The notes under the pieces are model-generated. The model worked only from the letters and a program-made list of their open reading frames with translations. It had not been told where the DNA came from and did no database searches. From IMG/VR virus record IMGVR_UViG_2879731240_000002: 26,245 bases of DNA; one strand, 5' to 3'. Each line of letters starts with the position of its first letter. The first letter of the stretch is position 1. The DNA is from a virus. Taxonomy: Duplodnaviria > Heunggongvirae > Uroviricota > Caudoviricetes. The translations under genes and the position numbers were made by a program. Below, piece by piece: positions 14,594 through 14,825 of the stretch.

Positions 14594-14610
14594 CGTAATG
14601 ATGGCGACAT
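14594..14610 (-). pseudogene. Endolysin gene stub (first 5 codons, MSPSL) cut by the IS66-family insertion
   Basis: An ATG overlaps the holin stop (TAATG); the reading frame runs 17 nt and then meets the IS66 terminus. The N-terminus resembles the phage-21 SAR endolysin start (MPPSL...) as I recall it. Confidence 0.5.
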
Positions 14611-14825
14611 TATTCACCTCTCGCAGCCTTACGCTTGTCTTCTCTGATTTTGAAGTACAGATTTGTCAGATAAGTCAGGAAGCCCAGAACCAGACTCCCC
14701 AGTACACCAATCGCAGCCCACTGTGACGGACTGACCTGATCAAGCCACTGTAAAAACCAGTAGCCAGCACTGCCTGCGGAGGTGCCGTAGGCAATGCCCG
14801 TTGAAATTTTGTCCATGGATTTCAT
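14610..14825 (-). CDS. Phage pinholin, S21 family (71 aa)
   Basis: [69 protein letters not shown] is near-identical to the phage 21 S holin as I recall it; two transmembrane segments; GGAGGTGAGG Shine-Dalgarno. Confidence 0.85.

Follow-up and report, generated by a model that had tools for sequence, protein, structure and literature searches.

The window analysed here, a stretch of 26,245 nucleotides, contains a prophage junction at which, on the minus strand, a pinholin gene runs into the first bases of an endolysin gene, then into nested insertion sequences, and finally into the end of a tail gene. The features of this junction are as follows.

14833..14837, minus strand: Shine-Dalgarno motif GGAGG of gene S, 7 nt 5' of the ATG, read from the sequence
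14610..14825, minus strand: S, an intact S21-type class II holin/antiholin (pinholin) gene of 71 aa with dual start Met1/Met4
14594..14610, minus strand: 17-nt stub of a SAR endolysin gene R (rrrD/R21 type), its ATG overlapping the S stop (TAATG)
12996..14593, minus strand: ISSfl3 (IS66 family) nt 1-1618, with the left inverted repeat, tnpA, tnpB and the N-terminal part of tnpC
13837..14511, minus strand: tnpA of ISSfl3
13490..13840, minus strand: tnpB of ISSfl3, frameshifted by a 20-nt deletion (ISSfl3 nt 961-980)
12228..12995, minus strand: IS1, 768 bp, insA/insB, within ISSfl3 tnpC, with a 9-bp duplication (ISSfl3 nt 1610-1618)
11903..12227, minus strand: ISSfl3 nt 1610-1934, the middle of tnpC and start of the DDE domain
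10639..11902, minus strand: complete IS600 (IS3 family), 1264 bp, left flank CTC and right flank ATG
10298..10638, minus strand: 3' part of a tail-terminator gene, its first ~221 nt missing; the far edge of a ~9.8-kb deletion

The 71-aa ORF is matched by the Pfam family PF04971, 'Bacteriophage P21 holin S', at E=1.4e-35 over profile positions 1-63 of 64, and 70 of its 71 residues are the same as in phage 21 S, the sole change being R64K. Both Met1 and Met4 are kept within an N-terminus, MKSMDK, that is the same as in phage 21, whose annotation lists the antiholin (Met1) and the holin (Met4) as products of S. The Shine-Dalgarno motif and its spacing are likewise those of the annotated phage 21 ribosome-binding site. 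An earlier, sequence-only reading of this DNA had claimed an intact S21-type pinholin with a good Shine-Dalgarno, and these comparisons confirm both parts of that claim. A Kyte-Doolittle scan reveals a Gly/Ala/Ser-rich TMD1 (residues ~8-27) of weak mean hydropathy, ~0.1-0.6, a strong TMD2 (residues ~34-58) with mean hydropathy up to 2.1, and a charged C-terminal tail. S21-type pinholins form ~10^3 heptameric channels of ~2 nm through which the proton motive force is lost, the 'lethal phage pinhole', and heptameric channels and membrane depolarisation are known for S21 68 (PMC9636201). The window holin probably shares this depolarising channel formation, as its one difference, R64K, is conservative and lies in the cytoplasmic tail. 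Expressed to a triggering level, it would depolarise the membrane, and it should be unable to lyse the cell without an endolysin or spanins. The earlier suggestion that a lone holin is harmless therefore stands only if the gene is silent; an expressed holin would not be harmless, because pinholins collapse the proton motive force (PMC9636201).

The endolysin stub, ATGTCGCCATCATTACG (14610..14594), reads MSPSLR* into the insertion sequence, with the break after base 2 of codon 6, so that MSPSL and a partial codon are left and both the SAR N-terminal domain and the muramidase domain (PF00959) are gone from the window. All 17 of its bases are identical to the rrrD start in the prophage of E. coli FDAARGOS_944 (NZ_CP065613.1, locus L016), which occupies the same serU site (mtfA, tRNA-Ser, int). 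The rrrD product there has 165 aa, starts MSPSLRK and is identical to the phage 21 SAR endolysin R21 at 158 of 165 positions. The stub forms the end of a gapless 4,823-nt alignment between the window (19416..14594) and FDAARGOS_944 at 99.69% identity; phage phi467, in which S, rrrD and Rz are annotated, matches only 15276..14594 (97.95%, blastn). Homology to both stops exactly at 14594, the ISSfl3 left inverted repeat GTAAGCGCCCCATCAGCG starts at 14593, and the same 61-mer R|ISSfl3 junction is found in every related chromosome examined. The stub is therefore not coincidental, because the alignment to two intact cassettes ends exactly at 14594 and the 61-mer junction recurs; judged from this alignment, it is an endolysin remnant and not a member of the family. 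The TAATG overlap, the MSPSL start and the IS66-family terminus 17 nt later had all been described in the sequence-only reading and are correct to the base, and its own alternative, a coincidental 5-codon stub, is contradicted by the 17/17 match that closes the 4,823-nt alignment. The comparison with the phage 21 S-R region that it proposed agrees at each point (70/71 for S, a shared TAATG overlap, and 158/165 to R21 for the lost endolysin, as preserved in the sister prophage). By tblastn with R21, phi467 R and Rz, RrrD, a 177-aa lysozyme, DUF1327, Rz, Rz1 and the P27 endolysin and holins as queries, no displaced endolysin or spanin was found in the 26-kb window at E<0.01, and the same-strand genes downstream of the lysis region are tail genes. 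The pinholin is thus orphaned within the window, as had been proposed, and the remainder of R and Rz beyond the insertion sequence is found in a related chromosome described below.

The sister prophage in FDAARGOS_944 retains the intact order S-rrrD-Rz-HNH-terS (P27 family)-terL-portal-protease-capsid-connectors-tail terminator-sheath. The window is identical to it at 98.4-100% of DNA positions across shared segments, and at 99.7-100% up to the breakpoint, and it shares the S gene, four tRNAs and a frameshifted allele of the late antiterminator Q. Unlike the window, the sister still has rrrD and Rz, its packaging and head genes and a 9.35-kb early region; ISEc60 insertions peculiar to it are found in its portal and sheath genes. 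Against L016 as reference, the window lacks 16152-25970 (9,819 bp, including one ISEc60 specific to the reference) and 1980-11328. Its tail-terminator part is 100% identical to FDAARGOS_944 from L016 position 25971 and 96.6% identical to phiP27; PF23840 covers only profile positions 83-147 of 150 in this ORF, and sheath, tube and tape-measure genes come after it. We considered phiP27 as the parent phage and rejected it, since only the tail module matches (96.6%) and the lysis cassette is unrelated; this restriction of the likeness to the tail module indicates that the prophage is mosaic. The S21-R21-Rz-Rz1 region of phage 21 resembles the window in its holin, dual start, ribosome-binding-site spacing and TAATG overlap, and in carrying tRNA genes between pR'/tR' and S. 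It differs in that the window keeps only 17 nt of R and has lost Rz/Rz1, has a Q of the PF06323 family (227-229 aa, vs the 162-aa Q21), and carries morphogenesis genes of P27-like myovirus type.

By exact-protein look-up with the sheath protein and the window Q allele, 20 related loci were collected from complete chromosomes (~4.4-4.7 Mb), and the records in which a pattern scan located the junction included those titled Shigella flexneri SFBU1023 and E. coli ECMA0423. All these loci have in common the R|ISSfl3 junction, the DNA of the holin gene and the junction of an early-region deletion. Neither the S-R::ISSfl3 junction nor a synthetic right junction (ISSfl3 right end, target duplication and R) was matched at 80% coverage or more in 5,426 complete E. 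coli genomes. The look-up with the window Q allele returned an undeleted intermediate, L032 (CP026871.1), which reads S, R nt 1-17, ISSfl3 nt 1-1934, IS600, ISSfl3 nt 1932-2754, and then R from nt 10 to its end, in register, followed by Rz, HNH and TerS. In it, ISSfl3 is bounded at either end by the 8-bp duplication TCATTACG, and IS600 by CTC. The sequence of L032 proves that ISSfl3 entered R by a simple IS66-type insertion and that IS600 afterwards entered tnpC, again by simple insertion. The window taken by itself, which has neither the ISSfl3 right end nor its target duplication, would be compatible with an R/ISSfl3 junction formed without insertion, by IS-mediated adjacent deletion, by recombination or as a coincidental 5-codon stub. 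Such an origin has a negligible probability in our judgement, given that L032 holds a complete ISSfl3, carrying IS600, between identical copies of TCATTACG with R continuing in register, and that the stub matches rrrD at 17 of 17 bases and closes a 4.8-kb gapless alignment. The 8-bp duplication is unseen in the window because the right end of the element has been deleted. An insertion of an IS66-family element at endolysin codon 6, as the sequence-only reading had it, is therefore what we find, with both junctions and the 8-bp duplication kept in L032.

L032 also contains an open frame at 12685..13206 that runs from the ISSfl3 right end into R (ILTLRTSRGAY+SLRKAVAV...) and for which the gene caller predicts a lysozyme of 173 aa whose SAR domain is intact.

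The window ISSfl3 is 98.6% identical to the full 2754-bp ISSfl3 of an S. flexneri virulence plasmid. Its assignment to IS66 rests on a left terminal repeat starting GTAAGCG and the tnpA-tnpB-tnpC order, the right repeat being missing from the window, and its Pfam matches are HTH_Tnp_1, TnpB_IS66, LZ_Tnp_IS66 and zf-IS66, with PF03050 (DDE_Tnp_IS66) in the ORF at 11895..12077. The 3' 820 bp of the element (nt 1935-2754) are absent. Copies on S. flexneri virulence plasmids share 98.6-99.7% identity, the GTAAGCGCCCC terminal repeats and the tnpA-tnpB-tnpC layout, and one pINV copy has the same 20-nt tnpB deletion allele; the patchy distribution of this deletion may stem from gene conversion and not from one single event. 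In contrast to the pINV copies, the chromosomal one ends at nt 1934 and is split by IS1. A derivation of the chromosomal ISSfl3::IS600 from the virulence-plasmid copy was considered and rejected, since IS600 lies at nt 1830 on the plasmid and at nt 1934 here.

The window IS600 is complete in length and sequence, and it has no 3-bp target duplication, its flanks being CTC and ATG. L032 preserves CTC|IS600|CTC, and L036 (CP055132.1) preserves, within the tail-terminator gene, the left-hand junction of another IS600, ...ATG|IS600, to which the window holds the matching right junction, IS600|ATG.... These three arrangements show the window IS600 to be a recombinant of the copy inside ISSfl3 (CTC) and the copy in the tail-terminator gene (ATG). 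IS1 is absent from L022, L025, L026, L028, L030, L032, L033, L035 and L038 and also from AE014073.1, which we take to be S. flexneri 2a 2457T. Since so many loci are without it, IS1 arrived last, and its insertion is, on this distribution, a later and lineage-restricted event.

The original cassette comprised S (pinholin), R (SAR endolysin, rrrD type) and Rz/Rz1, and the surviving junctions demonstrate its decay as a reconstructed series of five steps. ISSfl3 inserted into R between nt 17 and 18, duplicating TCATTACG; IS600 then entered ISSfl3 tnpC at nt 1934, with duplication of CTC, and a second IS600 entered the tail-terminator gene, with duplication of ATG. The two IS600 copies stood in direct orientation, and homologous recombination between them deleted the ~9.8 kb in between. 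Lost on the lysis side were the last 820 bp (3') of ISSfl3, nt 10-498 of R and Rz/Rz1; lost beyond it were HNH, terS, terL, portal, protease, capsid and connectors, together with the 5' end of the tail-terminator gene. As the fifth step, IS1 inserted into what remained of tnpC. The earlier claim that an IS66-family insertion disabled the cassette is therefore right about the insertion and incomplete as an account of the locus, to which the later IS600 recombination deletion and IS1 have to be added. In one further locus, L037, a larger IS1-anchored deletion reaches ISSfl3 nt 270, and S is still kept. The holin gene was spared because it lies upstream of every insertion sequence used as a deletion anchor.

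The likely state of the spared gene was judged from Q and the late leader, whose features are given below.

15626..16309, minus strand: late antiterminator gene Q (PF06323), with a 1-nt deletion in an A-run and its last ~14 residues replaced
15637..15609, minus strand: pR'-like promoter overlapping the Q end (promoter scan)
15558..15533, minus strand: tR'-like strong hairpin with T6, intact, between pR' and S (sequence reading)
15465..15437, minus strand: second promoter-like site, just upstream of the tRNA cluster (promoter scan)
15118..15427, minus strand: four tRNA genes between Q/pR' and S (ARAGORN and Rfam)
14891..14910, minus strand: small hairpin CCGC-TTTT-GCGG with T6 just before S, weak, with a 4-bp stem
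14891..15637, minus strand: the whole late leader region

The tRNAs are CAT (Met by ARAGORN, tRNA-Ile in FDAARGOS_944), Lys-TTT, Thr-TGT and Gly-TCC. The window Q ends in ...SKKRRHFQSKVLQK, vs ...SKQKAAFSKQSVAKVD in its relatives, and the annotators of FDAARGOS_944 flagged the same allele there as 'frameshifted'. In lambdoid phages, late transcription requires Q acting at pR' for read-through of tR', and the annotated pR'/terminator/tRNA layout of phage 21 suggests that the window leader would have worked in the same way. At 19417..19425, ~9.35 kb are missing relative to the FDAARGOS_944 prophage, with loss of the exonuclease, dicB, ydfABC, relBE, repressor-region and replication genes; this junction carries no insertion sequence and has a 10-nt filler, AGCATTACCA, common to all S. 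flexneri-type loci. Because the early region that would drive Q is deleted, Q is C-terminally frameshifted and the tR'-like terminator is intact, the holin is now most likely a transcriptionally near-silent relic. Some Q function may have survived the frameshift, and the promoter-like site at 15465..15437 could allow some read-through into S, the hairpin before which is weak. The literature yielded no mention of holin expression in S. flexneri, and the RNA-seq paper PMC4229854 is silent on the holin. Taken together, we are confident that the locus is a dead late-gene junction of a lambdoid/P27-like serU prophage of Shigella flexneri, produced by stepwise IS-driven decay, with the holin probably left as a near-silent relic.

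The loss of the endolysin and spanins might instead have been selected as a pathoadaptive change, in which peptidoglycan fragments released by SRRz alert innate immunity and Shigella gains by disabling each lambdoid lysis cassette. The best-known parallel is the essD-rrrD(ybcS)-rzpD/rzoD module of DLP12 in E. coli K-12, which like the window belongs to a defective lambdoid prophage and combines an S21-type holin with a SAR-type endolysin, and of which Shigella has no working copy. According to the part of PMC7918800 that cites Leuzzi et al. 2017, Shigella is without DLP12 SRRz/Rz1, and when the module is put back into S. flexneri, more peptidoglycan is released and virulence declines. In line with such selection, none of the S. 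flexneri-type loci read lacks the R::ISSfl3 lesion, while the E. coli sister prophage retains intact rrrD and Rz. However, other lesions are spread throughout the prophage (the early-region deletion, the Q frameshift, the loss of baseplate and fibre genes, IS1 and IS600 elsewhere), so that in a prophage so riddled the loss of R requires no special explanation, and the lesion is a single event in one lineage, which offers no convergence. We therefore regard selected loss as unlikely. Every S. flexneri-type locus carries both the early-region deletion and the ISSfl3 insertion, and FDAARGOS_944 carries neither, so that either of the two may have come first. DLP12 is a different prophage at a different locus (argU vs serU), and its module in K-12 is intact and transcribed, with a reported effect on the cell wall and vesicles, whereas the window endolysin and spanins were destroyed by IS events.

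A second alternative is that the orphan pinholin has been retained for a host function, such as vesicle formation, a role as a membrane-depolarising toxin or in abortive infection, or cargo export. A K-12 double mutant in which essD is kept and the endolysin and spanin genes are deleted, an experimental analogue of the state in the window, shows a 2.4-fold increase in vesiculation (PMC7918800), and the window holin is intact and identical in all structural states, even in L037 with its deletion to ISSfl3 nt 270. The holin DNA shows no difference among all related loci and E. coli FDAARGOS_944. However, this conservation carries no signal. Over 4.8 kb, 0-2 SNPs separate each S. flexneri-type locus from the window, except for L035 with a divergent patch near hok, and the E. 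coli sister prophage has 15 SNPs per 4.8 kb, so that only ~0.7 changes would be expected in the 216-nt holin gene even on the longest branch. Conservation of the holin as a sign of selection was thus rejected: with so little divergence among the loci, an unchanged 216-nt gene is uninformative and the comparison is without power. The neighbouring genes are equally unchanged, the deletions are all anchored on IS copies downstream of S, which amounts to mechanical survival, and the elements that would drive late transcription have been lost or damaged. Retention for a host function is accordingly very improbable. The proposal in the sequence-only reading that the locus documents domestication or repurposing finds no support here either, as the decaying prophage, which carries ipaH, bears this lesion among several others caused by insertion sequences and deletions, and its divergence is too low to reveal selection. 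Highly unlikely, too, is the combined case, in which the R-Rz knockout would be a second, independent pathoadaptive lysis-cassette loss and low-level pinholin would aid envelope physiology, for example vesiculation. If true, the serU R-Rz loss would parallel the absence of DLP12 SRRz, and the pinholin would act like the holin-only DLP12 module in K-12.

A near-silent relic left by stepwise decay thus remains our preferred reading, and the feature itself, in which the holin belongs to a well-characterised family, is ordinary prophage decay driven by insertion sequences and had already been sequenced. It yields no new protein, mechanism or system and has little import beyond bookkeeping. What the locus does offer is a fully reconstructible stepwise decay (insertion, second insertion, IS-IS recombination, further insertion) whose intermediates survive in sequenced strains, junction k-mers that could serve as lineage markers, and an extra data point for the published view of Shigella as intolerant of active lambdoid lysis cassettes.

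At the far end of the prophage remnant and within its retained part lie the following further features.

1311..2954, plus strand: IpaH-type NEL E3-ligase effector gene, at the far end of the remnant
1004..1183, minus strand: Shigella sRNA CssrB (Rfam RF02799, 230 bits), beside the ipaH-type gene
327..995, plus strand: class-I methyltransferase ORF, near the ipaH-type gene
44..247, minus strand: IS009 RNA match, near the ipaH-type gene
18178..18503, minus strand: hok/sok type I toxin-antitoxin module, a Hok-like ORF with Rfam sok/CssrC (119 bits)

It seems to be as a carrier of ipaH that the prophage persists. A second IS pair occupies 3611..5288, where an IS600 without its first 357 nt (3611..4517) abuts an IS1 (4513..5288), and from the ORF that follows the tape-measure gene to a P27-like tail-fibre fragment (3164..3612) there is a gap where the baseplate genes and the majority of the fibre genes have been lost. 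Among the related loci, L035 (E. coli ECMA0423, CP178302.1) shares all junctions and has ~120 differences clustered at window ~18390..19230, a patch that spans orf140, the intergenic region and hok and suggests a local replacement by recombination. Outside the prophage, a group II intron reverse transcriptase/maturase ORF (RVT_1 and GIIM) lies at 23801..25414 on the minus strand and is flanked 3' by an Rfam group II intron match, and near it, past mtfA and a tRNA-Asn gene, is a 249-aa integrase-family ORF (22477..23226, plus strand).
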